DNA of 64,000 nt from a virus (taxonomy: Duplodnaviria > Caudoviricetes): the IMG/VR virus record IMGVR_UViG_3300022555_000004, one strand, 5' to 3'. The notes beneath the pieces were generated by a model. That model had not been told where the DNA came from. It saw only the letters and a program-made list of their open reading frames with translations, and ran no database searches. How positions within the stretch are numbered: the first letter of the stretch is position 1; every line of letters starts with the position of its first letter. The position numbers were made by a program, and so were the translations under genes. Shown here one piece after another: positions 21,186-62,333 of this stretch.

Positions 21186-22028
21186 TCCTCCGATATTTTT
21201 ATGTACTTCACACATTTTCTTTTTTGTTTCTTCGTTATGTTTTTTACCATACATACCATTTTTACACCCTCTACAGGATTCACTAATCTTTCTTTTTGTT
21301 TCTTCTGTATGTGTTCTTCCTTTCATAATCTCACTATGATGTTTTCTTTGTTCTTCTGATATTATCTTTCCTTTATGTCTATCACTCATTTTCTTTTTTG
21401 ATTCGGTTGTATGTTTACGACCCTTACCAGACTTACTCATTTTCTGCTTTGTTTCTTCTGATACTTCTATACCTTTATGTGACTCACTCATTTTCTGCTT
21501 TGTTTCTTCTGAAGCAAAATGTTTTCCTTTATTGGATTCGCTTATTTTCTGTCGTGATTTTTCTGATAGTATCCGTTCTTTTGCGTATATACTAGCCGCT
21601 TGTTTTATCCTTAGTTTTATCTCATCCGTTCTATTTTTATACGCCTCTCTCATTTTTTGTTTTGCATCATCTGTATGACATATACCAGCCATTCCTCCAC
21701 TAATTGTGTCAACAAAATTACATAGAGGGCCTGTATTATTGTTTTGTCTACCAACAGCTCGGTTTATTTTTCCTTCTAAAACAAATGCATCATATTCATT
21801 TAAATGTTCTGTATGAAAAATAATTAAAGGCGTGCCTATCTCTTTTATTTTATTACTGAAATCTTTATTATAACATCTTTTCAAATGACTATGCGCCCGT
21901 CCATTACACCCTTTACCTACATAGAATGGTTCATAACCAAACTCATATTCACCATACACATAGTTACCAGGCTTACGTGGATCAAGATATACATAGACAT
22001 AAAAAATATTTTCTTCTGGGTTACACAT
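21174..22028 (-). CDS. GIY-YIG homing endonuclease with NUMOD3 repeats
   Basis: YVYVYLDP...FYVGKG; repeated SEETKQKMS. Confidence 0.85.
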   Translation of the reverse strand: MCNPEENIFYVYVYLDPRKPGNYVYGEYEFGYEPFYVGKGCNGRAHSHLKRCYNKDFSNKIKEIGTPLIIFHTEHLNEYDAFVLEGKINRAVGRQNNNTGPLCNFVDTISGGMAGICHTDDAKQKMREAYKNRTDEIKLRIKQAASIYAKERILSEKSRQKISESNKGKHFASEETKQKMSESHKGIEVSEETKQKMSKSGKGRKHTTESKKKMSDRHKGKIISEEQRKHHSEIMKGRTHTEETKRKISESCRGCKNGMYGKKHNEETKKKMCEVHKNIGGYYE

Positions 22029-22040
22029 AGATTACCTCAC

Positions 22041-22128
22041 TATAAATAGAATTGGAAGGGACAGCGGATACCTCACGCCGTTGCTTGTGTGGTCTCAACA
22101 CCAAGCTTACCTTCTATATCTATTTATA
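22041..22128 (-). ncRNA. Conserved structured leader, copy 1
   Basis: GAAGG-TAA-[hairpin]-AA-[hairpin]-TC-CCTTC, flanked by TATAAATA / TATTTATA. Confidence 0.7.
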
Positions 22129-32200: not shown

Positions 32201-32220
32201 TGGGAGGGTGGGATCAGCAA

Positions 32221-32434
32221 AACACATTTTCGTGATGCTATGCCACCGGAGCAAAAAGCGAACACATTTTCGTGATGCTATGCCACCGGGCGCAAAAAGC
32301 GAACACATTTTCGTGATGCTATGCCACCGGGCGCAAAAAGCGAACACATTTTCGTGATGCTATGCCACCGGGCGCAAAAAGCGAACACATTTTCGTGATG
32401 CTATGCCACCGGGCGCAAAAAGCGAACACATTTT
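32221..32434. repeat. 41-bp tandem repeat, five copies plus a partial sixth
   Basis: AACACATTTTCGTGATGCTATGCCACCGGGCGCAAAAAGCG starting at 32221, 32261, 32302, 32343, 32384, 32425. Confidence 0.95.
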
Positions 32435-32464
32435 TTAGCCGAACATATATGCGGACAAAATGTC

Positions 32465-34019: not shown

Positions 34020-34532
34020 CTATAGACCTAAATCAGCCAAAGCATGATTCAAACCAGCATTTTTGATATGTAGTAACAAAAATTCATTTATAGTAGGTAC
34101 TATAGGCTTATGTTTAGGAAACATTTTAGCTTCAGCACAAGACTTGTTATCCTTTTTGTTGTTACATGGGATACATGCCATCACGCAGTTATCGAAAGAT
34201 GACATACCACCTTTTGATCTGGGCACGATATGGTCAATAGAGCTATCTTGTTTGATTTCTTTACCACAATATTGACAGGTAAAGTTATCCCTTATAAGCA
34301 AGTTACGTTTACTGAACGGAACCTTCTTGCGCCATATAGAACGCACGTATTTCAGCAATCTAATAACTTCTGGAACAAACAATTCGATTGTTTGTTCAAA
34401 GTTACGGATAATTTGTTTAGTTGCCTTGATGACTTCGATTTTACCTTTTGACCATAATTTTAGGGCCTTATGTAATGTGATTAGACCTAATGGACTGTAA
34501 TCAGCATTTATTAATAACACTTGTGATTTCAT
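34020..34532 (-). CDS. HNH endonuclease (McrA-like)
   Basis: RDNFTCQYCG, IDHIVPRSKGG, CIPCNNKK. Confidence 0.9.
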   Translation of the reverse strand: MKSQVLLINADYSPLGLITLHKALKLWSKGKIEVIKATKQIIRNFEQTIELFVPEVIRLLKYVRSIWRKKVPFSKRNLLIRDNFTCQYCGKEIKQDSSIDHIVPRSKGGMSSFDNCVMACIPCNNKKDNKSCAEAKMFPKHKPIVPTINEFLLLHIKNAGLNHALADLGL

Positions 34533-34878: not shown

Positions 34879-36195
34879 TTATTTCTTTTTACTTACAGGA
34901 AGCGTTTTAATTTTAGACCAATCCCATACTATATCCGTTTCTTTTACATCTAACATGGCACACATTCGTAAAAATCCTTTTCGACCATGTTCTGTATCTA
35001 TGTCAGCATCAACTGCCTCTTTGTATATTTTTAGAGCATTCCATGATGACCATAGAGCTTTCCATTCTTTTTGTATATCATCATAACCCCATACATCATG
35101 ATCCCACATTTTCTCTGTCCATATTTCTGTCATACGGACAACAACTGTGAATAATTCGATTTTATTCATCAATCTGGCCATTTTATGTTCATATTCTTTT
35201 TTCTTATATGTCGGATCACATGCTAGTGATAAGTCGAATACATAGTGTGCCATAATGGATTTGATACGATCCCATTTTCTATGATAATTTTCAGCACCTA
35301 TATACCTAAACTCAATATATTCATTGGCAGAATTTAGGTGTTCTATGTTGATCGCCATATAGTGGTCAGCGGGATATTCTTTTTTCAATCCGGTCACATC
35401 AATCAATTTTGTGGCTAATTTTGGGGCATTTAATCTTATCAAGGAACGATTAACTGTATCATGTGCTGACCTAGCATATGTATTAAATTCTCTTGCTGCA
35501 AAAAAATTATAGATATACCCTTCATCCATGAATAGAGATAACTTAGTAATATCAATTGCTTCACCGAGATTAGGAACATTTTTCAATGACATACTGATAT
35601 GGAAGCCACATGCATCGTCTATCTCGGCAGCAGGGCCCATGTTGTTTATATACTCAAACACTTTTGGGCAAATTTCCAAAAATTCTTTTAGGGGCAGGAT
35701 AGGTGACACAATTTCCAGACCGTGCAATCCTAGTGACCCATCGGGTTTGATGACCCATTTTTTAGCCGACTTAACATTATGGTCATGTGTAATAATCATG
35801 TTTTTGAACGGTAGTGTTTCTAAGTTCAAAAAGTCTTTTATCAATTTTCTGAATAGTTGATCCTTGTCTATTTTGAGATTAGGATATACTTCATCAGGTG
35901 GTGGTATTTCATCACCTATTTCATATCCTGCTTCAACTGCCCATTCAGGTAAATTTGGTAAAGGTTCTGTATTATTATCTATTGATGTCCATGCTTCTAG
36001 TTTATCATCATATTCTTCTTGTTCGATTGCCATGTCCTGCATTTTATCAAACATATCAACTTGCTTTTCATACTTGTCTATGAACGGCGGCACTTTAAAT
36101 TCAAATTCAGCACCGACATATACGTTTGGATTAGTCAGGGCTTGACTTATATCTTGCTTAGATACTTTTTCTAATAGAAGTTCTCTTAATGTCAT
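34879..36195 (-). CDS. Putative amidoligase family protein, second paralog
   Basis: VGAEFEF, DGSL...GLEIVSP, CGFHISMS, IEFR; MTLRELLLE. Confidence 0.75.
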   Translation of the reverse strand: MTLRELLLEKVSKQDISQALTNPNVYVGAEFEFKVPPFIDKYEKQVDMFDKMQDMAIEQEEYDDKLEAWTSIDNNTEPLPNLPEWAVEAGYEIGDEIPPPDEVYPNLKIDKDQLFRKLIKDFLNLETLPFKNMIITHDHNVKSAKKWVIKPDGSLGLHGLEIVSPILPLKEFLEICPKVFEYINNMGPAAEIDDACGFHISMSLKNVPNLGEAIDITKLSLFMDEGYIYNFFAAREFNTYARSAHDTVNRSLIRLNAPKLATKLIDVTGLKKEYPADHYMAINIEHLNSANEYIEFRYIGAENYHRKWDRIKSIMAHYVFDLSLACDPTYKKKEYEHKMARLMNKIELFTVVVRMTEIWTEKMWDHDVWGYDDIQKEWKALWSSWNALKIYKEAVDADIDTEHGRKGFLRMCAMLDVKETDIVWDWSKIKTLPVSKKK

Positions 36196-36257
36196 TTGTT
36201 ATACCTCTTGTTATTTTAATATTCTTATTTATGTCTTTACAATAGCTTTATGTTTTT

Positions 36258-36342
36258 CTAAATAATAGAAGGTAATCCAGATGTGTGGACATACTGGAAA
36301 CAGCGGAGCGAACAGCTGCTGTCCCTTCTCATTCTATTTATA
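36258..36342 (+). ncRNA. Conserved structured leader, copy 2
   Basis: GAAGG TAA TCCAG...CTGGA AA CAGC...GCTG TC CCTTC...TATTTATA. Confidence 0.7.
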
Positions 36343-36356
36343 AGGAGCGACTGTCT

Positions 36357-37053
36357 ATGTCAAACAAAATTTTTGGTGTAATCTATAAAGCAACTAATCT
36401 TATTAATGGTAAATGTTATATTGGACAAACAATACGATTTAAAAAACGAAAATATGACCATATATTCTGGTCTATAAATGAACTAGATAATTTCTATTTT
36501 CATAATTCCATAAGAAAGCACGGCGTTGGTAATTTCAGTTGGGAAATTATTTATGAATGTGATGATAAATTGTTACTAAATGTAATGGAAACATTTAAAA
36601 TTATGACACATCATAGCCATGTTAGTGAAGGCAAAGGATATAATCTAACTTGGGGCGGTGATGTTATATATGGCAGACCTTGTTCAGAAGAAACTAAGGA
36701 AAAAATAAGGCAAACACAATTAGGTAAACATATTACTGATGAAACACGAATAAAAAATGTGTATTGCTCAACAAAACAGGCCCACAATATCAGAAGAAAC
36801 AAGAATAAAGAAGAAAACGTTTCGTCATTCAATTGACACTAAAACAAAAATGCGTGAAAATACAATAGGTTCTCTTAATGGGTTTTATGGTAAAAAACAC
36901 ACAGATGAAACTAAAGCAAAATGGAAAAATAGACCTGTTTGGAATAAGGGCATACCAAGATCAGAAGAAACAAAACAAAAAATACGTGAAACTAAGTTAC
37001 GAAACAAACGTTTTAACCTTCAATGTACTCTGGATGAACAAGTTGTTTTATAA
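36357..37053 (+). pseudogene. GIY-YIG/NUMOD3 homing endonuclease with a +1 frameshift in an A6 run (36752..36757)
   Basis: VIYKATNLINGKCYIG; NUMOD3 repeats continue in the second frame. Confidence 0.75.
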
Positions 37054-38944: not shown

Positions 38945-39250
38945 TTGTGATTTTATTTCTTTTAGTGCGAATACGGTCTTTCAACGATTTATGGGTAACT
39001 CCCGCCGGCGCCATTGGTATCCTACGTTTAGCGGTGTTAGCATAAACCAAGACTTCTTTATTCCCAATCATTTCTTTCCTCAATAATTTCTTTTTCATCG
39101 CTCTTCATCTTTCCAAGATCTTTTATTTTCCATCTTTTAGCCCACCCCATCTTATGAGGTTTACACATGGCACAAGACCTCTTTTTTACTTTATATACTT
39201 TTCTCATTTTTATCCCTTATTATAACACAATTTTCATATATTGTCAATGT

Positions 39251-39532
39251 TTATAATTCAAACAATTCATCGTCTAGTGTAAAGCAATCAACTTCATACG
39301 GTATAACATGTGATTTATTGACCAACCATTTTTTTAGATTATCTGGATATAAGATACTATAATTAACTTCGGTTATCCTATAATCAATAATAAAATATGG
39401 AACATCAAATTTATTATTATATGCTTGTTCTCCACGGTCAAAACTAATACTAACCCAATGCCCTTTATGATAGTCAGGGTCATTTTTAAGTAGTTTTAAT
39501 ATTTCTGGTTTAAATTTTACTTTCTTATTCAT
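39251..39532 (-). CDS. Small protein, LDDELFEL-tail family
   Basis: Ends FTLDDELFEL. Confidence 0.65.
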   Translation of the reverse strand: MNKKVKFKPEILKLLKNDPDYHKGHWVSISFDRGEQAYNNKFDVPYFIIDYRITEVNYSILYPDNLKKWLVNKSHVIPYEVDCFTLDDELFEL

Positions 39533-40303: not shown

Positions 40304-41019
40304 TATTTTATCATTTCCATCAATGTATCAAAGTCAATAATGGTTACGCGCGACCTTTTCATTGATTCACTTATTTTTCTTTTATGTTCATCTGACATAG
40401 GGCCTCTTTTCATTCCTGTTCTACTTTTACTCATTTTTTCCTTTGTTTCTTTGGTCATTGGATGTTTATTTTTTGCTGATATTGACATTTTTTCTCTGGT
40501 TGTCAACGAAAATGTTTTATTGATAGCCGATTTACTCATTTTCTTTTTTGTTTCATCTGATTTTTTTCTGCCTAAAAGTGATATACTTATTTTTTTTCTT
40601 ACGTCCGATGGTATAGTTTTTCCAAACATGTAACTCAATTCACCAGTATATTTTCCTATCATTGATAATGACCGTTTTTCAATAATTTCTTTTGAAAATT
40701 TATATCCTTTAGGTATGCCATCTCCACCCCATGTAAGATTATACCCACCTTCTGTCCAATGAGAATGGTTTACAATAATTTTCATGGTTTCCATGACACC
40801 TAAAACTAAGGCATCATCACATTCATATAATATTTCCCATTTGAAATTACCAAGACCATACTTTTTAATAGCACGATGAAAATATGTATTGCTTTTACTT
40901 TCAACACTATCTTTATGCCCTTGTCTTCTTTTATGTAATGATTGTGTTGTTTTGCCAACATAACATTTACCGTTGATTAAATTTGTTGATTTATAAATAA
41001 TACACAATTGTTCTGACAT
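40303..41019 (-). CDS. GIY-YIG/NUMOD3 homing endonuclease (start MSEQLC)
   Basis: IIYKSTNLINGKCYVG, FKWEILYEC, GGYNLTWGG, NUMOD3 repeats. Confidence 0.88.
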   Translation of the reverse strand: MSEQLCIIYKSTNLINGKCYVGKTTQSLHKRRQGHKDSVESKSNTYFHRAIKKYGLGNFKWEILYECDDALVLGVMETMKIIVNHSHWTEGGYNLTWGGDGIPKGYKFSKEIIEKRSLSMIGKYTGELSYMFGKTIPSDVRKKISISLLGRKKSDETKKKMSKSAINKTFSLTTREKMSISAKNKHPMTKETKEKMSKSRTGMKRGPMSDEHKRKISESMKRSRVTIIDFDTLMEMIK

Positions 41020-41033
41020 AAGATATACCTCAC

Positions 41034-41121
41034 TATAAATAAGATGTGGAAGGGACAGCAGCAAACCTCACGCTGTTTTCGGTGTGTTGACGCACCCGAA
41101 TTACCTTCTACATGTATTTAG
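41034..41121 (-). ncRNA. Conserved structured leader, copy 3
   Basis: GAAGG TAA TTCG...CGAA AA CAGC...GCTG TC CCTTC...TATTTATA. Confidence 0.7.
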
Positions 41122-41124
41122 AGA

Positions 41125-42900: not shown

Positions 42901-43000
42901 CTTTATATATCCTTAGTTTTTTCTCTTATTATAACACAAAAAGGGAATAATGTCAACCATTATTCCCTTTTGTAAGTATTGTAAATAGATAGCTTTTTTT

Positions 43001-44474: not shown

Positions 44475-44541
44475 CGTTTTACCACCTTTCTTTCACTGTT
44501 TTTTCTCTTATTATAACATAAAATGTTGGCCAAGGCAAGTC

Positions 44542-44979
44542 TTATTTTTGTTCAATATCAATAGTGTCTTTGTTCAACATATACCAATCGGGGTTATTCA
44601 ATGTATCCATCGTAAAGTTTAACGTGGCTGCATTCCACACCATTAGGCTGGCAATGTTCTTTGTTTTATCATAATTGTGAATAACATAGATATGTTTAAA
44701 AATACCATAGGCAAAACCAATCTCCCAAATCGTTCCAGAGTCATCATTCATACCATCTGTAACAACAGCAACTACGGCATTACAATTCTGAATGGCGGTT
44801 ATGTCTTCAAGAAAAACATTCTTTCCCCATTCTTTGTTAGTCAAATCCCAAGCGTTTGGAATGTCGTGTTCCATAGGAACATAGACCTCATGACCCTGTT
44901 TGCGAAGTTTATCGGCAAGGAACGAAATCGTTGCCCTGTCCTTTGTATTAAAAAATGCTCCTGCTAAATATATTTTCAT
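44542..44979 (-). CDS. Nucleoside 2-deoxyribosyltransferase-like protein
   Basis: KIYLAGAFF, D...I, DSGTIWEIGFAYG. Confidence 0.85.
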   Translation of the reverse strand: MKIYLAGAFFNTKDRATISFLADKLRKQGHEVYVPMEHDIPNAWDLTNKEWGKNVFLEDITAIQNCNAVVAVVTDGMNDDSGTIWEIGFAYGIFKHIYVIHNYDKTKNIASLMVWNAATLNFTMDTLNNPDWYMLNKDTIDIEQK

Positions 44980-45040
44980 AGTGTTATCTCACTTTTTTCT
45001 CTTATAATAACATAAAATCCTTTGTTTGTCAAGGCCTATG

Positions 45041-45241
45041 TTAGAACATTTTTCCGTCAAAATTCAATATGTTACGAATGGGTGCCAGTCTATTGAAGAT
45101 ATCTTGAACATTTACCATCTTATCGTTATGAAATTTTTCCAATTGTAAATACTTATATAATTCAACAATGACTTCATCTGCTTCCGTCATTTGTGTTTGT
45201 AAATTTTTTATATCTAATTCTAATTTATTGATATATCTCAT
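45041..45241 (-). CDS. Hypothetical protein
   Basis: ORF with RBS. Confidence 0.55.
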   Translation of the reverse strand: MRYINKLELDIKNLQTQMTEADEVIVELYKYLQLEKFHNDKMVNVQDIFNRLAPIRNILNFDGKMF

Positions 45242-45534
45242 ATACTTCCTTTCTTTTATGTCAATTCTATATCATTTTTAACGAACATAATGTCAGCCGT
45301 TTGATACATGTTTTCCCCAAAGATATTCATTATTTGCACAACTGAATTTCAAGAACATCAGTATTATGATCGAAATGATATCTCATGGCGTTTAGGTCAT
45401 TTTTCGCTAATACATCAACACCCTTTTTGGTCAATGTAACCCTTACTATATCGTTAATGTTTATTATGTTTTTCATATTTTTATCTCACTTTTTTCCTTT
45501 TATTATAACACAAAATTCTTTGTTTGTCAATATA

Positions 45535-45563
45535 AAAAAAGGATGGTCAAAACCATCCTTTTT
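45535..45563. terminator. Bidirectional Rho-independent terminator
   Basis: AAAAAAAGGATGG/CCATCCTTTTT. Confidence 0.7.
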
Positions 45564-48846: not shown

Positions 48847-48923
48847 TGGCAGGCCTTGTAGGTTATGCTCCCACTACTTTTGTTTTGGAGACAAATGTGA
48901 TAATCTGATTTCACCAAAGACCC
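48847..48923 (-). tRNA. tRNA-Trp(CCA)
   Basis: Loop CT-CCA-AA; atypical T-loop AGCATAA; CCA end. Confidence 0.8.
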
Positions 48924-48932
48924 ATATTTTAT

Positions 48933-49005
48933 TGGAGCCCCTATTCGGATACGAGCCGAATCCTTCCATTTTACGAGAATGGTGCTCTCACTAAGCTATA
49001 GAGGC
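48933..49005 (-). tRNA. tRNA-Thr(CGU)
   Basis: Loop CT-CGT-AA; CCA end. Confidence 0.8.
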
Positions 49006-49015
49006 AGTATATTTT

Positions 49016-49089
49016 TGGATCTTGTGGGTAACGATCCCACCGATTTCACATTGCAAGTGTGATGACCGCCCCGTGCAGTCCCAAGACCC
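49016..49089 (-). tRNA. tRNA-Ala(UGC)
   Basis: Loop CT-TGC-AA; G3:U70 pair. Confidence 0.85.
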
Positions 49090-49092
49090 TTA

Positions 49093-49284
49093 TTATTTTA
49101 CTATTTTTCTTATAAATCGTTCTGTTATTCTGTATGCAAAAGAACAAATAGCAACACCAACACATATCAAAACTATGATAACTGCAAAAATTCCTGTTAA
49201 ACAACCGATTAACAGGAATATACTTAGTAATACTATGTATATGAATGGATGTTCTAATAGTTTTATTTTATATTCCTTTTTCAT
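49093..49284 (-). CDS. Small membrane protein
   Basis: Hydrophobic core. Confidence 0.55.
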   Translation of the reverse strand: MKKEYKIKLLEHPFIYIVLLSIFLLIGCLTGIFAVIIVLICVGVAICSFAYRITERFIRKIVK

Positions 49285-49994
49285 ACAATTTCCTTATACA
49301 TATTTTTTTTACTATTTTTTTTACTATTTTTTCTGCCTTTGAACCACCCTTGTTTCAAATAATAATCAAGGTCGCTTTTTATGATTTTTTTATTTTCAAT
49401 GATGTTATATATCCAACATGTTCCGAATTGTGAATTTTTTTGCCCTTCATGTAATCCTGTATGTTTTTCACTCATTTTTCTCTTAGTTTCTTCTGAATGA
49501 CGTTTGCCTTTAAAAACATTCCCTGCGATTTCACTTCTTTTTTGTTTTATATCAGGAGAACCATTATGCGCCCATGATTCTAATCGTTTGTCTATTCCCA
49601 ACATACTAATTATTGATTTATAATTTTCACCATATTTTTCTTTCAATTTTATATCAGCGGTTATTCTTCCTTTTTTACATCGTTCAATATGATCTTTTGA
49701 ACCATCGTTTAAATAATCCCAACCACCTTCGTCACCTCGTTTGAGATTATACGTATTACCGGACTTCAAATATTCGTCTGTAACCAATTCTGATTCTTTG
49801 TCATCCATGTCCTTTTTGTTATCAAACACATGAAGAACCGTTTTCTCAAAACAATCTTTGCCATACTTGTTTATGGCACGTTTCAAATATTTTCCTGAAC
49901 CTAAGTAATTATCATAGATATTGTCTGTTTGATGTTTACCTATATATATTTTACCGTTCGCCTTGTTTCTAACTTCATATACGATATAGTTCAT
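49281..49994 (-). CDS. Seg-like GIY-YIG homing endonuclease inside the tRNA cluster
   Basis: YIVYEVRNKANGKIYIGKHQT, YLGSG, YNL; TATAAATA at 50014..50021. Confidence 0.88.
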   Translation of the reverse strand: MNYIVYEVRNKANGKIYIGKHQTDNIYDNYLGSGKYLKRAINKYGKDCFEKTVLHVFDNKKDMDDKESELVTDEYLKSGNTYNLKRGDEGGWDYLNDGSKDHIERCKKGRITADIKLKEKYGENYKSIISMLGIDKRLESWAHNGSPDIKQKRSEIAGNVFKGKRHSEETKRKMSEKHTGLHEGQKNSQFGTCWIYNIIENKKIIKSDLDYYLKQGWFKGRKNSKKNSKKNMYKEIV

Positions 49995-50048
49995 AATTTT
50001 TATCTCCTATATCTATTTATATAAAATTAAAAATTTGTAAATGAAATG

Positions 50049-50119
50049 AGCGGAAAATAGGATTTGAACCTATACAAACTGCCGGGTAGGCAGTCATGCT
50101 ACTTTTACATCATTTCCGC
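50049..50119 (-). tRNA. tRNA-Gly-like with ACC anticodon
   Basis: GCGGAAA/TTTCCGC, U73; stem ACTGC/GCAGT with loop CTACCCG. Confidence 0.7.
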
Positions 50120-50131
50120 TTATGTTTAGCG

Positions 50132-50203
50132 AGCGGGATAGGGGAATTGCACCCCTGATTTCCACGTTGGCGACGTAGTTCCATGCTACTTGGATAATCC
50201 CGC
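50132..50203 (-). tRNA. tRNA-Gly(GCC)
   Basis: Loop TC-GCC-AA; U73. Confidence 0.8.
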
Positions 50204-50211
50204 ATATGTTC

Positions 50212-50287
50212 TGGCAATAACGAGCAGATTTGAACTGCCATAATCTTGATTGACAATCAAGTGCACTTGCCATTGTGCTACGTTACC
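50212..50287 (-). tRNA. tRNA-Asp(GUC)
   Basis: Loop TT-GTC-AA; GCCA end. Confidence 0.85.
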
Positions 50288-50293
50288 ATGTTT

Positions 50294-50419
50294 TGGCGGC
50301 GTGTTCGCTCTATCAGTAAGAGATCGATCGATTTTTTCACTCCATCATGTATTGTAAGTCTATCTTTATAAGCGCTATTTTGATTCCTCTGCTTTACACA
50401 ACTTCCCTGAAAACACACC
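50294..50419 (-). ncRNA. 126-nt tRNA-like element
   Basis: GGTGTGTT/AACACGCC stem plus GCCA end; spaced like a tRNA within the array. Confidence 0.45.
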
Positions 50420-50431
50420 ATATTATATTTT

Positions 50432-50506
50432 TGGAGCCCAATACCCGATTTGAACGGGTGTCTCAACTTTACAAGAGTCATATTCTGCCAACTAAACTAA
50501 TCGGGC
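50432..50506 (-). tRNA. tRNA-Thr(UGU)
   Basis: Loop CT-TGT-AA; CCA end. Confidence 0.85.
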
Positions 50507-50565
50507 GTATAATTATTCCTTACTTCTGTTCTTATACTACACTATTTATAATAGTTTGTCAAGTA

Positions 50566-50880
50566 TTATTTTTTTGTTGTTGCTTTGGCTGCCTTTCTTG
50601 CCTTAGCTGCTTTCTTAGACGCCTTCAAAGGATTCAGTTTCTTTTCATCCTTCTGAACAATAACGATCTTGACGGTACATAATGGGCATCGACCATCAAT
50701 CCATTTTGCTTCCGGTTTCATATATGCCCTGCAATATGTAATGTTATCATAAACATCAACATTTTTACATCCTTCGCATTTATCAATAACCGGACTACAA
50801 AAACCGTCTGGAAAATTACATTTTCCATTTTGCATAAACGGACAACGAACGCCCTTTCTGATTGTATCACATTTTTTCAT
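50566..50880 (-). CDS. PxxKW-family Cys-rich protein
   Basis: VIDKCEGC...YCRAYMKPEAKW...CPL; LNPLKASK. Confidence 0.8.
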   Translation of the reverse strand: MKKCDTIRKGVRCPFMQNGKCNFPDGFCSPVIDKCEGCKNVDVYDNITYCRAYMKPEAKWIDGRCPLCTVKIVIVQKDEKKLNPLKASKKAAKARKAAKATTKK

Positions 50881-50909
50881 TTCATATTTCTCCTAATGAA
50901 ACAGATGAC

Positions 50910-51368
50910 TTATTTATCAATTTTTTTATATAATTCATCTAAACCCTTACAAAAATCATCGTTCATTCTTGTAATATCTCTGTCTAATGTGTCATATGAA
51001 TCATCCATTTTATCGTTCAAATTATTCTCAACTAATTCAAGTTGACGATGTATTGCATCAGCATTATCATTGATTTGACGATTTAATATATCAACATTAT
51101 CATTGATTTTACGATTTAATATATCAATATCATCATTGATTTTACGATAAACTTTTTCATCATTCGACTCAATTTGAGTATACATGTCATAAATTCGTCT
51201 GCCAATATCGGTATTATCATTAGCAATATCAGTGCGCATTTGCTGTATCTGTTCTTTCAATTTGGTTATTTTATTGAATAGTTTATAGATACCAAGTATC
51301 GCAAACACAATAAACACCAACACAACCATTACAAAACCTAAACCTAACATAAATTCATACATTTTCAA
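50910..51368 (-). CDS. TM-anchored coiled-coil protein with 11-aa (33-bp) repeats
   Basis: KINDDIDILNR / KINDNVDILNR / QINDNADAIHR. Confidence 0.65.
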   Translation of the reverse strand: MKMYEFMLGLGFVMVVLVFIVFAILGIYKLFNKITKLKEQIQQMRTDIANDNTDIGRRIYDMYTQIESNDEKVYRKINDDIDILNRKINDNVDILNRQINDNADAIHRQLELVENNLNDKMDDSYDTLDRDITRMNDDFCKGLDELYKKIDK

Positions 51369-51391
51369 ATCCTCCTATACATTTTATTTTT

Positions 51392-51465
51392 TGGAGCAGA
51401 TAGCCGGACTCGCACCGGCCTCTTTGGCTTGGAAGGCCAAGGCACAACTTCTATACCATACCTGC
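51392..51465 (-). tRNA. tRNA-Gly(UCC)
   Basis: Loop CT-TCC-AA; TCCA end. Confidence 0.85.
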
Positions 51466-51472
51466 ATATTTC

Positions 51473-51547
51473 TGGTAGGACGTAGTGGAATCGAACCACT
51501 TCGTTATAGGGTGTAAACCTATCGCTTTCCCATTGAGCTAACATCCC
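51473..51547 (-). tRNA. tRNA-Val(UAC)
   Basis: Loop TT-TAC-AC; canonical T-arm. Confidence 0.9.
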
Positions 51548-51556
51548 ATATATTTT

Positions 51557-51636
51557 TGGTACGCCTGGAGGGAGTTGAACTCTCATGTTTCCAGTTAACC
51601 TTTCAATTCGTTCGTAGCGAAAGGGTATACAGGCGC
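51557..51636 (-). tRNA. Non-canonical tRNA-Arg(ACG) lacking a D-arm
   Basis: Acceptor GCGCCTG/CAGGCGT, loop CT-ACG-AA, long variable region, CCA end. Confidence 0.65.
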
Positions 51637-51753
51637 ATATTTATTATTTTAACCACATCCACCATTTGTTCATTTGATCTCGGTTCTCACTCAATCGAAA
51701 CCATAACAATAATTGTATTTTATATCAATCTACCACTGAAATATGGCGGAATA

Positions 51754-51981
51754 TTATTCGTCTTCATCCTCTGGATAACCGTCTTTCATAACTGATAATT
51801 CATCAATTCGATCTGTAACCATATCAAGTAATTGTTCAATATATTCAATTATTTCTGGTGTAATAATTTCTGTGTCAATATCTTTGAGAAATTTATCAAC
51901 ATCCTTTTCTGAATATAGGTCATACAAATTTTCTAAGATTGTATCCTCAACAACCCCTCTCACATTTTCAACAAAATCCAT
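51754..51981 (-). CDS. Acidic hypothetical protein
   Basis: ORF with GGAGG RBS. Confidence 0.6.
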   Translation of the reverse strand: MDFVENVRGVVEDTILENLYDLYSEKDVDKFLKDIDTEIITPEIIEYIEQLLDMVTDRIDELSVMKDGYPEDEDE

Positions 51982-52010
51982 TATTATCCCTCCAACATTA
52001 TTTTATATTT

Positions 52011-52085
52011 TGGCAGCCGTGTTTTGAATCGAACAAAATTCTCTTGGGTCAAAGCCAAGCATAATAGCCATTATACGACACAGCC
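52011..52085 (-). tRNA. tRNA-Gln(UUG)
   Basis: Loop CT-TTG-AC. Confidence 0.85.
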
Positions 52086-52091
52086 TTATTT

Positions 52092-52167
52092 TGGTGCTGC
52101 TTCAGGGAGTTGCACCCCATTCTCATGTTCTTCAAACATACGCTATCACTGGACTAGCTCAAGCAGC
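52092..52167 (-). tRNA. tRNA-Phe(GAA)
   Basis: Loop TT-GAA-GA. Confidence 0.85.
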
Positions 52168-52176
52168 ATATATTTT

Positions 52177-52252
52177 TGGCACCCCTAGTAGGACTCGAAC
52201 CTACATATGAACTGTTTAGAAGACAGTTGCCTATCCATTAGGCTATAGGGGC
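52177..52252 (-). tRNA. tRNA-Arg(UCU)
   Basis: Loop CT-TCT-AA; canonical cloverleaf. Confidence 0.92.
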
Positions 52253-52258
52253 ATATTT

Positions 52259-52492
52259 TTAAAATATAGAATCATCCAATTCAATTATGAAAACAGGCGA
52301 CACTGTAAACCCATATGCTCGTAACTGACTGACTTGTAACAATTCTAAATCTATTTTGACACTTTTATCTGATCGCATATTATCACATATATCTTTTGTT
52401 TCTCTAAGACCCCATCCTGTAACGGCCCGCATGTCTTTTATGGATTGAATAAAGATATGGTCAATATCATTTTTTGATATATTATATAACAT
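52259..52492 (-). CDS. Ribosomal protein L7/L12 C-terminal-domain-like protein
   Basis: IQSIKDMRAVTGWGLRETKDICD. Confidence 0.6.
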   Translation of the reverse strand: MLYNISKNDIDHIFIQSIKDMRAVTGWGLRETKDICDNMRSDKSVKIDLELLQVSQLRAYGFTVSPVFIIELDDSIF

Positions 52493-52493
52493 A

Positions 52494-52817
52494 TTACTTT
52501 CCCATATATTTAGTTGATGTCCAAAATCTTTTAGCACTTTTCATTGCTTGTTCTATGTTTCTGCGACCAACCGGATTTGATGAATGAACATCCCAAGTCA
52601 TCGGTTCAATATCACCATCATGCGCCCATTTTTCAATGACACGAGCAATGTCATATCCTGTGTCCATACCATTGTTACTTTCAGAACCTAAATCATGGTC
52701 AAATGAAATATGGGTAATTTTTTCAGTGTTCAAAATAGTAATTGCATCATCATATGATTTAGCCCAAACATCATAATCATGAGGCATTTTCCTTATGTCA
52801 TCAATCCAAAGTTTCAC
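52494..52817 (-). CDS. Cyclic-phosphate-processing receiver domain protein
   Basis: KLWIDDIR, ISFDHDLG, TGYD, VHSSNPVG. Confidence 0.8.
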   Translation of the reverse strand: MKLWIDDIRKMPHDYDVWAKSYDDAITILNTEKITHISFDHDLGSESNNGMDTGYDIARVIEKWAHDGDIEPMTWDVHSSNPVGRRNIEQAMKSAKRFWTSTKYMGK

Positions 52818-52849
52818 TTTTATCCTTTTTTATTTATACTATCATATTT

Positions 52850-53965
52850 TTAAGGAATAGTCAATACGTCTTTTATTTTATTTATAACCATTTCAGGTGT
52901 TATGTTCAATGAACATTCTGGAACATCAATCCAATTTGGCGCCCAATCAACTCTATGTTTTTTATCACAAGAACCACTTTCTTGTTTTTTCCAAGTGTAA
53001 CAACCGAAACACGTTCCTTCCGTGTGATTATATACAAAATGTAATGGAAAATCTGTATCCATCCATGTATTAGTTGAAATACATATTGTAGGTGTGTTTG
53101 TTGCTGTACCTACACATATTGCTGCCGTTGCGGCGCCGACCATACAATCGGCATATTTGATGTATCTAGCCATTTCAGAAATAGATAATCCGGTTCTATC
53201 AATAATACCATCACCGACAAGATTTGTCGGTTCATTGGAAATAGGTATAACCTTATACCCATTTTCCATAAGGAAATTGGCAACCGTTTGCCATCCCATT
53301 GGATACAACCAATTCTTTTCAAAATTTGACAAACCATATTCAGTCAGACAAACATATTTACCATCAACATCTGGCCGTGTATCATCATAATCAATTCTCA
53401 ATTGTTGTGGTTGATATTTCAATCCAAGACATTGCAACACTGCTTGTTGTGGTGTTGTATATCGTGGATATTTACCATCCCAAAATACAGAATCATATAT
53501 TTGTAATGAAGGTTCATAAACAGCATACACACCTTCATTTATAAGTTTTGCATATTCCGTTGTAAAAAATATGTTAGGATATGATTTACACACTGCATTT
53601 ATATATTCTATCCGTGAACACTGAACAATCAATCGACAGTTATGTTTTACTCTAAACATTTCAAAAACTGGCATCCAACATAGAAAATCGCCAAGTGTTG
53701 TATATGGATACGCAATAATAACACGTTGACCTGATAGGTCTAACGTATGTTGCCATAAAATAGAATTATCTAAAGTTGTTATCTTGATATACCATTTTAT
53801 AAACTGTTTTTGATCGGCAGAAGCCCATGTACTAGGAGTAAGAGTTGTTTCATATCGAACACCATTTGTATCCAAATCAATAAACTGAACCTTTACAGGT
53901 GGATCATCTTTAGTACCAATATATTCTAAACACGCTCCTAAATGAAAATTATACCTGAATTTCAC
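52850..53965 (-). CDS. GT9-like glycosyltransferase resembling autotransporter heptosyltransferases
   Basis: FIKWYIKI, TLGD..CW.P....FR.KHNC, KNW....WQ.V. Confidence 0.7.
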   Translation of the reverse strand: MKFRYNFHLGACLEYIGTKDDPPVKVQFIDLDTNGVRYETTLTPSTWASADQKQFIKWYIKITTLDNSILWQHTLDLSGQRVIIAYPYTTLGDFLCWMPVFEMFRVKHNCRLIVQCSRIEYINAVCKSYPNIFFTTEYAKLINEGVYAVYEPSLQIYDSVFWDGKYPRYTTPQQAVLQCLGLKYQPQQLRIDYDDTRPDVDGKYVCLTEYGLSNFEKNWLYPMGWQTVANFLMENGYKVIPISNEPTNLVGDGIIDRTGLSISEMARYIKYADCMVGAATAAICVGTATNTPTICISTNTWMDTDFPLHFVYNHTEGTCFGCYTWKKQESGSCDKKHRVDWAPNWIDVPECSLNITPEMVINKIKDVLTIP

Positions 53966-53975
53966 TACTTCACCG

Positions 53976-54239
53976 TTATTCGATACCCAAATATTTTAAT
54001 AATTGTTTTCCTAAAAATTTTCTTCGTGCTAATGTAACACGGTCATTGGTATGCCGTAATGCTTTATGTGATTCGACAAGCAATTCCAATAAAATTTCAT
54101 CGGGATATTTGTCATCACCGATACCTAACGACCTAATATATTTTCTAACCAATAACATTTTCATCATCCTTCCAATCATCGTTTTCATTACACATTTTAC
54201 ACATATCCCACAATAACGACATTTCAAATCCAATTTCAT
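53976..54239 (-). CDS. Hypothetical protein (start uncertain)
   Basis: ORF. Confidence 0.45.
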   Translation of the reverse strand: MKLDLKCRYCGICVKCVMKTMIGRMMKMLLVRKYIRSLGIGDDKYPDEILLELLVESHKALRHTNDRVTLARRKFLGKQLLKYLGIE

Positions 54240-54513
54240 CAGCTGTCATAGGAACATCATAATCAGGATGGTCTTTTGGATGCGTAAGAATATATGTATC
54301 TTCGTGATTTATTTCAATATCACCCTTACCTAGATACAAACAATAACCATAATTCTGATCATTGACTTCTTTATCATCAATTTCTTTTCTGTTTTTCCAA
54401 TATGGGCATTTACCAATTACTTCAAGGCGCCCGTTATCTTTCATTTTTAGTGATTCATAACAATACATTCCTTTTGGTATTAACGATTTATCCATACTGT
54501 TCCTTTCTATCAA
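54145..54513 (-). CDS. Cys-rich hypothetical protein
   Basis: IPKGMYCY, CPYW, GYCLYL, LLWDMCKMC. Confidence 0.6.
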   Translation of the reverse strand: MIERNSMDKSLIPKGMYCYESLKMKDNGRLEVIGKCPYWKNRKEIDDKEVNDQNYGYCLYLGKGDIEINHEDTYILTHPKDHPDYDVPMTADEIGFEMSLLWDMCKMCNENDDWKDDENVIG

Positions 54514-54514
54514 T

Positions 54515-55213
54515 TTAAAATAATTTAACTATACGACAAATAGTTGATTTTGCCACATTTAGTTGTTTTCTTATTTCATGTTGTTTCATACCATTGTCTA
54601 TCATTTGTTTTACGAGATTGATATCAACAGGTTTTGATGTTTTTCGTATTTCTTTAGTGTAAATCATATCCTTATTTTTTTCAAACTTTTCAATATCTAC
54701 ATGTTGTAATTGATGACAATTTGAACATAGAACCGAACATTTATTTAATTCATTTTTTATACTTTTTTCAATATCATCAATGGTATCCCATCGTTTTATA
54801 TTAGTTACATCGCCAATGTTAAATAATTTATCATCTTTATGATGAAATTCCAACGCCTTGTTGCATTTATTATATCCGCATATTTCGCATTTAAAAATAT
54901 CTTTAAATATCAGACAGATTATTTTATTTGTTCTGTCACGATTTTGTATTTCATAATTATAATGTTCTTCTATATGACAGTTTCCACATAATAATATACA
55001 TTTTTTGGCTTCTTTTTTTATGTTAGATAAACTCAAAGAAAATCTAATTCCGTGTGTGCCCATTTTGGTATCTTTGTCATTTTTATTGACATGATGAAAT
55101 TCTAATAGGTGAATATTTGTTTCACCACAAACGGTGCATTTTCCACCAAGTTCGTTAATTACTTCAATCCTTTTTACCCATCTATTAATATATTCATTTT
55201 CACGTTTTGTCAT
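54515..55213 (-). CDS. Double-HNH endonuclease with C-terminal HTH
   Basis: Two LEFHH...CxLLCxNCH units. Confidence 0.85.
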   Translation of the reverse strand: MTKRENEYINRWVKRIEVINELGGKCTVCGETNIHLLEFHHVNKNDKDTKMGTHGIRFSLSLSNIKKEAKKCILLCGNCHIEEHYNYEIQNRDRTNKIICLIFKDIFKCEICGYNKCNKALEFHHKDDKLFNIGDVTNIKRWDTIDDIEKSIKNELNKCSVLCSNCHQLQHVDIEKFEKNKDMIYTKEIRKTSKPVDINLVKQMIDNGMKQHEIRKQLNVAKSTICRIVKLF

Positions 55214-55290
55214 AAGTTCAAATCCTCTAATAATATTATTTATTAAAATGCTTGAACTTTGTATTCATTAGTTATGATAATATTATAAAA

Positions 55291-55380
55291 TGCGGAAGAA
55301 CGGGGAATCGAACCCCGACTGCTGTTTAGACAGTTTTGTTTAGCAAACAAACGTAACAAACCAATATTTACCTTTCTTCC
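55291..55380 (-). tRNA. tRNA-Ser(GCU)
   Basis: Loop TT-GCT-AA; long variable arm; G73. Confidence 0.88.
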
Positions 55381-55386
55381 ATATTT

Positions 55387-55475
55387 TGGCGGCAGGAACA
55401 GGTTTCGCACCTGCATCCGTGATTAGCGGCGACACTTTTCAAGAGTGCTTGGCCCTCTATACTGCCCATCCTGCC
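55387..55475 (-). tRNA. tRNA-Ser(UGA)
   Basis: Loop CT-TGA-AA; long variable arm; GCCA end. Confidence 0.85.
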
Positions 55476-55740
55476 ATATATTTTATACTTCACGATAATT
55501 GAAAACTAATCCTTCCCCTCTAAGGAATTTGCTATATTGCCTTGCGGGGCCCAAATCAATGTGTGAAGTCGTTTTCTTTCCATGTTTGCTCTGTATCTTG
55601 TTAGGCAAACCGATTTTTGTATATTTGTCCATAAATTCAGCATTTCCTAATGCTCTCTCTCTTTCAACGTTACAACTTTTGCCTTAACTGCCTTAGCAGG
55701 TGCTTGGATAATTCTTTCCATTATTTATATTTCCTTTCAA

Positions 55741-55935
55741 TTATTCTGTCATGTGTTCAACAACTTTTGTGATAATACCCACAACCAATGCCACTGGAAG
55801 ATAAATCCAGAACAAAAACATCATCAATTCAGTAGCTTGTACCCTAACTAAAATTTGATAAAGTAAATAAAACCAAATAGGCATAGTTACTAAAAATCCT
55901 AAGATAGAGCTAACCACTTTCAATTTATTTTTCAT
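55741..55935 (-). CDS. Small two-TM membrane protein
   Basis: Hydrophobic. Confidence 0.6.
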   Translation of the reverse strand: MKNKLKVVSSILGFLVTMPIWFYLLYQILVRVQATELMMFLFWIYLPVALVVGIITKVVEHMTE

Positions 55936-55995
55936 ACGCTTCCTTTCATCTTTTTATAATATACCAGACTTTTCATATTTTGTCAAATAAAATAT

Positions 55996-56070
55996 TGGTA
56001 GGGATGGCCGGACTTGCACCGGCACTGTACACGGTTTAAGCGTGTTGACTCTGCATTGGCCTACATCCCC
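55996..56070 (-). tRNA. tRNA-Leu(UAA), short variable arm
   Basis: Loop CT-TAA-AC; ACCA end. Confidence 0.8.
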
Positions 56071-56078
56071 ATTTATTT

Positions 56079-56156
56079 TGGTAGCCGAAGAAGGATTTGC
56101 ACCTTCAAAAATCTTAATTTTGAGTTAAGAATGTCTGCTAGTTGCATCATTCGGCC
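56079..56156 (-). tRNA. tRNA-Leu(CAA), short variable arm
   Basis: Loop CT-CAA-AA; ACCA end. Confidence 0.75.
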
Positions 56157-59834: not shown

Positions 59835-60002
59835 AAAAATTCCCCTCTCTATATATTACCCACACATTATCCTCACTGTGAGGTTACTTGTGGCTACATA
59901 GTTGGATTGGTGTATGCCTCCATTGACATATCTGCCGTTATCCTTGACTTTTTCTCTTATTATACAACACTTTTTGGAAAAAGTCAAGGATTATTATTTA
60001 CT

Positions 60003-60047
60003 TGGAACCCTTGTCGGGACTCGAACCCGCCGGCAAGACAGGCCCTC
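60003..60047 (-). other. tRNA 3-prime-half fragment (T-arm plus acceptor strand plus CCA)
   Basis: CGGG TTCGAGT CCCG ACAAGGGT TCCA; no D or anticodon arm upstream. Confidence 0.55.
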
Positions 60048-60076
60048 ATTACTTCTTTTTCCAAGACCGTTCCTCT

Positions 60077-60310
60077 TTAACTCCGTTTTATTTCATATTT
60101 TTCACAAGCATCAATTGCCTCTTGTAGAGTATCAAAACCACTATACACAATTGAACCATTAATTCTTTTACCGTCATGATATGCCCAGTAACCATCTTTT
60201 TGTGTTTTTTCCCAGCCACCGCCATAAGTATAATGGAATAGATGGATACTATACAAACCGCTTTTCCATACCATGTAACAGGAATCACTATCAACTTTTT
60301 GAAATTTCAT
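60077..60310 (-). CDS. Hypothetical protein
   Basis: ORF; F.TL.EA..AC motif. Confidence 0.6.
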   Translation of the reverse strand: MKFQKVDSDSCYMVWKSGLYSIHLFHYTYGGGWEKTQKDGYWAYHDGKRINGSIVYSGFDTLQEAIDACEKYEIKRS

Positions 60311-60479
60311 TATTTTTTTCCTTTAGTAATTTATTCATACAGATTAAAGCATCCATATCTTGCTTCATACCACGCAATAATAATTCGGATACAAAATCAA
60401 CGCCTTCAAAACGTCCGAAAAACAATTGTTCACGGAACCGTTTTAACAACATTTTGTTATTCAATTCTTTTAAATCCAT
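60291..60479 (-). CDS. Hypothetical protein
   Basis: ORF behind an early promoter cassette. Confidence 0.55.
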   Translation of the reverse strand: MDLKELNNKMLLKRFREQLFFGRFEGVDFVSELLLRGMKQDMDALICMNKLLKEKNNEISKS

Positions 60480-60555
60480 ATCACTATCTCACTTTTTCCT
60501 TTGATTATAACACAAATCCTTGGATTTGTCAAGTGAAATTATTTACCTGTATGCT

Positions 60556-61704
60556 CTATTTTTTTATCAATCTAAATTTTGAATCCTTACCAAATGCTGT
60601 AGCATTTGATATAAATTCTTCTTCTGTTTGGCCAATCCATCGAAATATATTATGTGTTTTTGTTGTTGGCAAAAATCCGTGCATAAAGGTATACATCCTT
60701 GTTACACCTTTCACCAATTCATCCGTCCACTTATCACCGATATAAGAATTTCTTTTTAATGCAGTCAATGGTTCATATCTTTGTGGAAACAAAAAAATTG
60801 TTCTCCCAACATCATCTGTCATTTGTTGTGCTTTGATAATTCTTTTCCAAAAATCACTAGGACTATCCTTCCAATTAAATAACATATAACAAAAGAAACC
60901 TGCTTTTACTTTATATTTTTCGACATATTCTAACGCACGTCTGATATGCTTTTCGTATCCAATGAAATCAAAACTAAACCTCAAATATGCTGTTCCTTTT
61001 TCCTTTTGCGCCCCCCATTTCAATTCGCTAAATCTTTTTGCTTGATGTTCAGTAAATGACGATACATGAAGGCCATGTATGTCAACAGGTAAACCAAATT
61101 CAATCAGTTCATCTACTATATTATCAAAATATTCGTGTTCAGTGAAGTTATTATCATATAGAACAACACTTGTAGCATCAGGAATTTCCAATATGCCTTT
61201 TTGTAAAATGTTCTTTATAGATTTAAATGATTTCATACATCCTTCTAATGTAGGAACGGCACAATAACCACATTTATTTACACATCCTCTTGATGCATAT
61301 AAAACAATTTTTTTCGAGTCTGGACATACTGAATATTTTGGTGTCAAATTTTCTATTTCTTCACACATCCCACTAACAACCGTCACTTTACCTCTTGATA
61401 AAAATGGATTGGATGGAAATGTAGTATTGAACCACTCTGGATTTAAAGTAGGAAACGAACCACCTACAATTATTTCCGCCTGTGGATATTTTGTTCTATA
61501 AAAATTAATTGTATCCTTATATATTTCTGAATAAAACGAAAAAATGCACGAAATAAGTATCTTATCAGGTATAAACATTTCAGGGCTTTTACCGATAACA
61601 TACTTATATTCATGTTTATTTTGTTCGCACCATTCTGCCCATTTCATCAAGGCTATATTAGGTGCTATTGATTTAACCGATGGTTCAACTATAAGATATT
61701 TCAT
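60556..61704 (-). CDS. Radical SAM protein with B12-binding-like N-terminus
   Basis: SRGCVNKCGYC (CxxxCxxC), YDNNF, RFSFD. Confidence 0.9.
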   Translation of the reverse strand: MKYLIVEPSVKSIAPNIALMKWAEWCEQNKHEYKYVIGKSPEMFIPDKILISCIFSFYSEIYKDTINFYRTKYPQAEIIVGGSFPTLNPEWFNTTFPSNPFLSRGKVTVVSGMCEEIENLTPKYSVCPDSKKIVLYASRGCVNKCGYCAVPTLEGCMKSFKSIKNILQKGILEIPDATSVVLYDNNFTEHEYFDNIVDELIEFGLPVDIHGLHVSSFTEHQAKRFSELKWGAQKEKGTAYLRFSFDFIGYEKHIRRALEYVEKYKVKAGFFCYMLFNWKDSPSDFWKRIIKAQQMTDDVGRTIFLFPQRYEPLTALKRNSYIGDKWTDELVKGVTRMYTFMHGFLPTTKTHNIFRWIGQTEEEFISNATAFGKDSKFRLIKK

Positions 61705-61705
61705 A

Positions 61706-62272
61706 TTATATCAATCTCTCCGTTCCCTCTGGCCATTCGCCATCATTTGTTTTTTTCCAATGAAAAAGGTCATTATGAATCATCCATTGTTCAGGCTTTG
61801 AACCATATAATTGTTGTAATTTCTCTCTTTTTGTTTTTCCACCAGCAATAATAACTTCATCCATATGGTTTATAATATACTTTGTAAAATCTTCTTTTGA
61901 AATGATAAAAACTTGTATATCATTTGGTTCTACCGTTAAAAAAGACAGATAATCATATTTTTGTTCTTGCCTAATTTGAAAGAATGTATATGTATTTGCT
62001 TTTAAACTAAGGCACGATCCTTTTAATTCAACTTTTGAACCATTAGTTAGGTTGTCTATGCGATAATCATAGTCGCTTTCTTTTTTATTTCTAATTTGAA
62101 GTTTCCATCCAGCATCAATAAGAAGCAACTTGACAAATTCTTCCATATCTGCTCCCTTTGTTTTTGGTGATTGTCTGAATATCCATTCGTTTCTGGAATC
62201 AATCCATGCACCAACCTTTTTCAATCTTTTTTCTTTTACTTTATCAACTATTGCCCATTGTCGTTTATTCAT
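61706..62272 (-). CDS. PD-(D/E)XK restriction-endonuclease-like protein (start MNKRQW)
   Basis: KGADME, DY....VELKGS, FQIR. Confidence 0.6.
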   Translation of the reverse strand: MNKRQWAIVDKVKEKRLKKVGAWIDSRNEWIFRQSPKTKGADMEEFVKLLLIDAGWKLQIRNKKESDYDYRIDNLTNGSKVELKGSCLSLKANTYTFFQIRQEQKYDYLSFLTVEPNDIQVFIISKEDFTKYIINHMDEVIIAGGKTKREKLQQLYGSKPEQWMIHNDLFHWKKTNDGEWPEGTERLI

Positions 62273-62333
62273 ATATATCTCACTTTTTCCTTTGATTATA
62301 ACATAAATCCAAGGATTTGTCAACATAAAATAA

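Follow-up and report, generated by a model that had tools for sequence, protein, structure and literature searches.

Why should the loop of a folded leader repeat, letter for letter, the ribosome-binding site (RBS) of the gene that follows it? This question is raised by the region at 36258-36359 of the window, by which we mean the whole 64,000-nt stretch of viral DNA that was analysed. The same arrangement recurs in two further places of the window, here called copies 1 and 3, and the region at 36258-36359 is accordingly copy 2. We describe its layout, follow the leader family into other viral and metagenome contigs, and weigh the explanations that can be offered for the repeated word.

Layout of the leader in copies 1, 2 and 3

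Read on the + strand, copy 2 opens with a late-promoter-like box, TCTAAATA, which direct reading places at 36257-36264. This sense box is off-consensus, and its gap to P1 is 3 nt, against a family mode of 6 nt. A three-way junction follows at 36268-36328 (fold and covariance model, 79.6 bits, E 2.9e-16). Going round the junction, P1 (GAAGG/CCTTC, 36268-36272 / 36324-36328) is joined to P2 (36276-36298) by J1/2, which reads TAA; P2 is joined to P3 (36301-36318) by J2/3, which reads AA; and P3 is joined to the 3' strand of P1 by J3/1, which reads CTGTC. The stem of P3 pairs CAGC (36301-36304) with GCTG (36315-36318), and its loop, GGAGCGAACA (36305-36314), begins with the letters GGAGCGA, so that this loop copy of the ribosome-site word occupies 36305-36311. 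After a 6-nt spacer behind P1 comes TATTTATA (36335-36342), which is the T4-type late promoter TATAAATA read in reverse complement. On the - strand, positions 36335-36342 therefore hold a perfect TATAAATA, 6 nt from GAAGGGACAG, and this reverse box points across the junction toward a divergent amidoligase-like gene (36195-34879). The translation initiation region (36343-36359, + strand) consists of AGGAGCGA at 36343-36350, a 6-nt spacer and an ATG at 36357; GGAGCGA here lies at 36344-36350. On both strands of the 64-kb window, GGAGCGA occurs only twice, at 36305 and 36344.

The ATG at 36357 starts an ORF of 159 aa (36357-36836, + strand) that encodes the N-terminal part of a GIY-YIG homing endonuclease, including the catalytic domain, and is 55% identical to the copy-3 enzyme. 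The NUMOD3 DNA-binding part of the copy-2 endonuclease is found in a different, overlapping reading frame (36757-37053, + strand), and the gene thus appears to have been broken into two by a frameshift. Given this frameshift and the off-consensus sense promoter, copy 2 looks like a partly decayed cassette, which has nevertheless retained its matched 7-nt word.

Copies 1 and 3 lie on the - strand. In copy 1 (22026-22128; covariance model, 96.6 bits), the sense promoter TATAAATA at 22128-22121 is followed by the junction (22114-22055), with the loop word at 22076-22069; the reverse box is at 22041-22048 (+ strand), and the RBS word at 22040-22033 precedes an ATG at 22028. In copy 3 (41017-41122; covariance model, 87.6 bits), the sense promoter reads TCTAAATA (41122-41115), the junction spans 41108-41049, the loop word lies at 41071-41065, the reverse box at 41034-41041 (+ strand), and the RBS word at 41033-41026 precedes an ATG at 41019. 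In copy 1 both the loop and the ribosome site read GTGAGGTA; in copy 3 the ribosome site also reads GTGAGGTA, but the loop reads GTGAGGTT. The sequence-only reading had given these same words for copies 1 and 3, and its reading of GGAGCGA at both positions of copy 2 was confirmed directly. One three-way-junction fold is predicted to be common to all three copies, and the covariance model of the family detects only these three in the window, at 80-97 bits. A second TATAAATA lies antisense to copy 3 (40992-40999, + strand), within the first codons of the copy-3 endonuclease gene; if it is active, its transcript would cross the copy-3 ribosome site directly.

Copy 2 is the sole + strand copy, situated inside a minus-strand early/replication region, and has no co-directional gene upstream. 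The region around it encodes helicases, SSB, RNA ligase, NAD-dependent DNA ligase and many tRNAs, and T4-type replication genes are present in the window. Several other features of the surroundings were recorded. An HNH endonuclease ORF (34020-34532, - strand; Pfam HNH, E 7.6e-14) lies 1.7 kb from copy 2, and the covariance model detects no three-way-junction leader at this ORF. About six near-identical tandem copies of a 41-nt unit, GGCGCAAAAAGCGAACACATTTTCGTGATGCTATGCCACCG, occupy 32207-32452 in otherwise gene-dense surroundings. A family of ~57-nt repeats on the minus strand, with TTGACA and TATAAT-like hexamers, has members at 107-163, 39200-39256 and 42908-42964, with further ones at 44491-45539 and 59939-62332; these repeats are probably early promoters of the phage. 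Sixteen tRNA genes are found on the minus strand, most of them in a cluster at 48.8-56.2 kb (48850-56156), the others at 4230-4302 and 62368-62438.

A family of structured leaders

Pattern scans of viral and metagenome contigs yielded about 45 distinct and genuine homologous leaders, to which a covariance-model search added divergent ones. In the family alignment, both sides of P2 change at 8 of 8 pairs, and covariation of P1 is seen among the divergent members (L101, GAGAG/CTCTC; L051b, TAAGG/CCTTA; L099, AGAGG/CCTCT). P3 is a stem of 3-7 bp that occurs in 22 different sequences and stands immediately 5' of an invariant CTGTCCCTTC. The junction nucleotides TAA, AA and CTGTC are strongly conserved, the P2 loop varies freely, and P1 is placed exactly where transcription from the sense late promoter is predicted to start.

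With Rfam 15, only tRNAs reach the gathering score in the window, and nothing matches 36150-36450 up to E = 10. Searches of cultured phages with megablast and blastn returned no homolog; short matches in Campylobacter phage CP21 and Synechococcus phage S-SZBM1 were rejected, the one being an ordinary coding region and the other an ordinary late promoter plus Shine-Dalgarno (SD) sequence. Among the matches listed, a scan of genome contigs for the leader gave chance matches only, and a looser pattern on viral contigs gave no further leaders; a pattern with the TAAGG-type P1 likewise produced no additional ones. When nine whole viral contigs and the window were searched with the covariance model, one new divergent solo copy (L099) was found beyond the known members. 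A search of the literature on antisense RNA or RNA motifs at homing-endonuclease genes found no description that matches the element. We rate the leader as an undescribed structured RNA family, and as a variant form of antisense or leader control.

Two members of the family lack an intact ribosome site. The solo junction L099 (1501-1640) has the covarying P1 given above, a P3 reduced to a bare GGCC tetraloop and no downstream ribosome site; lacking the site, it also lacks the word. It is followed by the TATTTATA box and then by a strong bidirectional terminator-like hairpin, and its reverse box faces a divergent gene. In L071 (1175-1270, minus strand), the leader is intact, the ribosome-site word ends after GAGA and no ATG lies behind it. 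This leader is apparently a remnant left after loss of the endonuclease gene, with L087 as its intact counterpart.

The loop and the ribosome site change together

In nearly every leader, the same word of 7-12 nt is found in the P3 loop and at the RBS. Across the ~45 homologs, the longest word common to the P3 region and the ribosome site has a mean length of 7.9 nt when the site is the leader's own and of 5.0 nt when it is taken from other leaders. The words fall into at least 16 families; examples are GGAGAAC, GGAGTTAC, GGAGTGAA, GGAGCAAA, GGAGCTAA, GAGGTGAA, GAGAGGT, GTGAGGTA, GGATAAGT, GGATTAGT, GGATGGA and GGAGCGA. When each word family is represented once, the own site matches best, without a tie, in 11/16 cases and ties for best in another 4/16, and the match sum observed for these 16 representatives was attained by 0 of 100,000 permutations. 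From the three copies in the window it had been proposed that the two positions change together. The proposal extends to the whole family, since loop and RBS co-vary across the word families in this permutation test; a check of further homologs for loops and sites that vary independently did not refute it, the ~45 leaders being matched.

The identity is not confined to the SD core but reaches 3-5 nt past it. Over the 4 nt that lie 3' of the core, the agreement is 3.35/4 with the own site and 1.46/4 with the sites of other leaders. The ribosome, through its 16S rRNA, reads the SD core only; hence, the agreement beyond the SD would not be maintained by ribosome binding alone. Furthermore, 230 of the 270 identical nucleotides (85%) are in the P3 loop and not in the stem, which indicates a pairing partner outside the leader rather than an intramolecular switch, and points to readout of the loop by base pairing as the probable mode of recognition. 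A three-element SD sequestor, with anti-anti-SD, anti-SD and SD segments, was rejected for the same reason, as the identical nucleotides do not form a paired strand. Within 2.5 kb, the same strand contains no reverse complement of the word, nor, for the word of copy 2, does the window, and no partner was found for the P2 loop. The only encoded complement of the word is the opposite DNA strand of P3. We also considered an upstream ORF or N-terminal extension that would begin at the CTG of CTGTCCC; this was rejected, as the ATG is in frame in 24/47 leaders and out of frame in 23/47, with stops inconsistently placed.

The word belongs to the leader and not to the gene

The genes behind the leaders are diverse. 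Among the nucleases are two GIY-YIG types (with NUMOD3), a LAGLIDADG enzyme (L059) and a weak match to His-Me finger nucleases (L080); a treble-clef zinc-ribbon family (L068 type) is also represented, and several downstream genes have no Pfam match. The word GGAGTTAC is found ahead of four kinds of gene and GGAGTGAA ahead of both LAGLIDADG and GIY-YIG genes, while one nuclease family is found after many different words. Since unrelated nucleases share a word and a single family is associated with many, the matched pair is part of the leader module, behind which ORFs have been swapped. The sequence-only reading had described the loop as a copy of each gene's own RBS. The match to the own site stands; its attribution to the gene does not, because the word travels with the leader and not with the gene family. 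Several leader-bearing GIY-YIG genes of other contigs that are cut by stops or frameshifts have also kept their matched words (L021, 3830-3961; L082, 8781-8843; L091, 563-730).

A late-promoter box facing backwards

The reversed late-promoter box (NNTAAATA) lies at a modal distance of 6 nt from the junction, as a mirror of the sense promoter. Among 44 leaders, it reads TATAAATA in 26, CATAAATA in 10, TCTAAATA in 5 and GATAAATA in 1, and was not found in 2. Sense promoter and reverse box alike have an invariant TAAATA core with variable first two positions, and each is at a modal 6 nt from its end of P1; with this equal spacing, transcripts of either strand would be expected to begin with (A/G)GAAGG. 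The promoter itself is 5' of the junction, whereas its reverse complement abuts the SD at a distance of 0-2 nt. In the window, TATAAATA occurs 18 times on the coding strand versus 4 times on the opposite one, and copies 1 and 3 account for 2 of these 4 with their reverse boxes; on the coding strand, several of the boxes lie at normal distances ahead of genes.

A minority of leaders depart from this arrangement. In the L051 lineage (two copies), which has the longest matches of all (12 nt; 13/14), there is no TATTTA box, and in L034 a reversed TATAAT replaces the box, together with a 7-nt match that contains one A/G difference. An outer helix formed between the sense promoter and the reverse box was considered but gained no support. 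The predicted duplex of own boxes (-4.96 kcal/mol) hardly differs from that of cross pairs (-4.84 kcal/mol, p 0.30), the complementarity of the spacers gives p 0.10, and the variable first two positions show no compensation.

A possible antisense brake on endonuclease translation

We give about an even chance to an explanation in which the reverse promoter gives rise to an antisense RNA that exposes an anti-ribosome-site loop and limits translation of the endonuclease. Copy 2 is taken here as one instance of a portable cassette that expresses free-standing homing-endonuclease genes in uncultured T4-like phages, made up of a late promoter, a three-way junction of ~60 nt, a reversed late promoter, an RBS and an ATG. 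The reversed TATAAATA would initiate the antisense RNA at the base of P1, and this RNA would fold as a mirror three-way junction whose P3' loop is exactly complementary to the SD plus the following 3-5 nt. By pairing with this site in the endonuclease mRNA, such a loop could hinder binding of the 30S subunit, with the outcome that the selfish nuclease would be produced in small amounts only. The "copy" of the word on the sense strand would be merely the other DNA strand of the anti-ribosome-site loop. Its matched diversity may have arisen when non-SD bases of the RBS drifted neutrally and the loop then changed to compensate. The matched words, their joint variation, their place in the loop and the conserved, symmetric boxes are observed; firing of the reverse box, the existence of the antisense RNA, its pairing with the RBS and the repression of translation are steps that we infer from the sequence.

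Predicted energies are consistent with such pairing. The complement of the word is predicted to be unpaired with a probability of 0.77 in the antisense RNA, versus 0.60 for the word in the sense RNA, and the predicted duplex between it and the ribosome site has an energy of -12.1 kcal/mol with the own site and of -5.5 kcal/mol with the sites of other leaders. The folding energies of the sense (-20.3 kcal/mol) and antisense (-19.3 kcal/mol) RNAs do not tell the strands apart. The asymmetry between G-U and A-C wobbles, used as a strand test, offers few informative mismatches, most of which are transversions. No terminator is found after the antisense unit.

It had been suggested at the outset that the loop is either a decoy SD in the sense RNA, an anti-RBS loop in an antisense RNA, or a guide-like element. 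The antisense option appears to fit best, because the identity in the loop includes non-SD bases, no complement is encoded on the same strand, and the reverse box is conserved and equally spaced; the other two rank lower. We consider it unlikely that the P3 loop acts within the mRNA itself, showing a copy of the initiation region that competes with the true site for 30S subunits, or for a factor that binds initiation regions, or else feeds that site, as a decoy or standby site would. The start of the junction at the +1 that is predicted for the sense late promoter, the high conservation of the junction nucleotides and the match that the L051 lineage retains without a canonical reverse box would all be accommodated by such a mimic; in addition, the word is mostly unpaired in the sense fold (0.60), and this fold is slightly the more stable. 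On the other hand, a ribosome that reads the SD core only would leave nothing to hold the next 3-5 nt identical, several leaders have the initial Gs of the SD base-paired within P3, and we know of no protein that reads arbitrary words of 8-12 nt. It is hardly credible that the two words are a non-functional direct repeat derived from a duplication or insertion, for example a target-site duplication. They are indeed direct repeats, 36-44 nt apart, but there are at least 16 different matched words, the sequence flanking both words is conserved, and the repeats are too short to be homogenised by recombination. Very improbable, too, is that the element is only a timing switch, in which TATAAATA pairs with TATTTATA beside the SD in early read-through RNA, the late RNA lacks the 5' arm, and the word is incidental. 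The inverted 8-mers that flank the junction, with the SD 0-2 nt from the 3' member, recall the design known for I-TevI, I-TevII, I-TevIII, segB and mobE (PMC2988022), and in L101 the flanks pair across 12 bp. However, with about -5 kcal/mol the helix is weak, and it leaves the SD outside; its spacers and outer box positions do not covary, copy 2 has no upstream gene in the same direction, and the identity of loop and ribosome site would be left wholly unexplained.

The junction could instead be the handle for a dedicated protein, with the P3 loop guiding the resulting ribonucleoprotein to its own ribosome site, as RNA or DNA and on either strand. A loop that is programmable and matched to its target, set in a frame of invariant junction nucleotides with a freely variable P2 loop, would suit a guide, and the wordless solo junction L099 implies that the scaffold has an independent existence. 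We nonetheless find this distinctly improbable, as the leaders showed no conserved partner gene, unrelated nuclease families lie behind them, and the guide would be just 7-12 nt long. It is also rather unlikely, though worth stating, that the junction is the protein scaffold of a natural programmable RNA-guided repressor, whose P3 would be a short guide retargeted to the RBS of each cassette and shared across unrelated endonuclease families as a self-limiting plug-in.

The antisense explanation, for its part, does not account for everything in the leader. The conserved junction nucleotides, together with the position of P1 at the start of the sense RNA, are left unexplained by a simple antisense loop, and the invariance of these nucleotides suggests that the junction scaffold itself binds something. 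An antisense RNA would moreover be fully complementary to the ~60-nt sense junction, which would be a far better target than a ribosome site of 7-12 nt. In the L051 lineage, where the TATTTA box is absent, the antisense RNA would need a different promoter.

Comparison with known systems

Homing endonucleases have to be expressed enough to spread, but not enough to harm the phage that carries them. In T-even phages, the known solutions to this dosage problem are hairpins that sequester the RBS, and autorepression. The leader cassette would be a third and portable solution, common to at least four unrelated nuclease families. If the antisense explanation is true, the leader would be a compact brake on translation, re-programmable by natural means, and its family would be a new kind of structured RNA that is abundant in the phage metagenomes of freshwater and sludge. 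If it is false, an identity of loop and RBS that holds base for base would be without known explanation, which would be more interesting still.

For the homing endonucleases of T-even phages (I-TevI, I-TevII, I-TevIII, segB and Aeh1 mobE), a stable hairpin is known to sequester the RBS in early or middle transcripts, with the late promoter situated within the 5' arm of this hairpin, so that the inhibiting arm is missing from late transcripts (PMC2988022). The leader resembles these systems in that it serves homing-endonuclease genes in T4-like phages and has TATAAATA immediately ahead of a structured leader, and the purpose of keeping the nuclease low or late is probably common to both. Nevertheless, RBS sequestration, the defining feature of the T-even control, is not seen in the leader. 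In the predicted folds, none of its helices includes the SD, and its promoter is ahead of the whole fold; its structure is a three-way junction accompanied by a second, reversed promoter, and one of its loops repeats the RBS and does not pair with it.

Closer parallels may be found among antisense RNAs. In IS10/Tn10, a cis-encoded antisense RNA, RNA-OUT, reportedly limits the transposase, the loop of its hairpin making the first contact with the initiation region of RNA-IN; RNA-OUT is said to overlap the very initiation region that it blocks. The leader is likewise part of a mobile element, and the complement of its loop matches its own RBS (predicted energies of -12.1 for own and -5.5 kcal/mol for cross pairs). 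In contrast to RNA-OUT, transcription of the putative antisense RNA would begin upstream of the RBS and proceed away from it, without overlap, and this RNA would act via a separate, co-evolving loop. A small RNA of phages P1 and P7, the c4 antisense RNA (immI), is reported to be structured and to have loops that match a ribosome-binding region lying outside the segment that encodes it; the matched sequences differ among related phages, and c4 and its targets are said to be on the same transcript and complementary to each other. In the leader, too, a loop is matched to the RBS and the matched sequences vary between relatives. Its words are, unlike those of c4, identical on the same strand, and the pairing RNA must therefore come from the other strand. 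By analogy, then, the leader may work most like RNA-OUT and RNA-IN or like the c4 RNA of P1.
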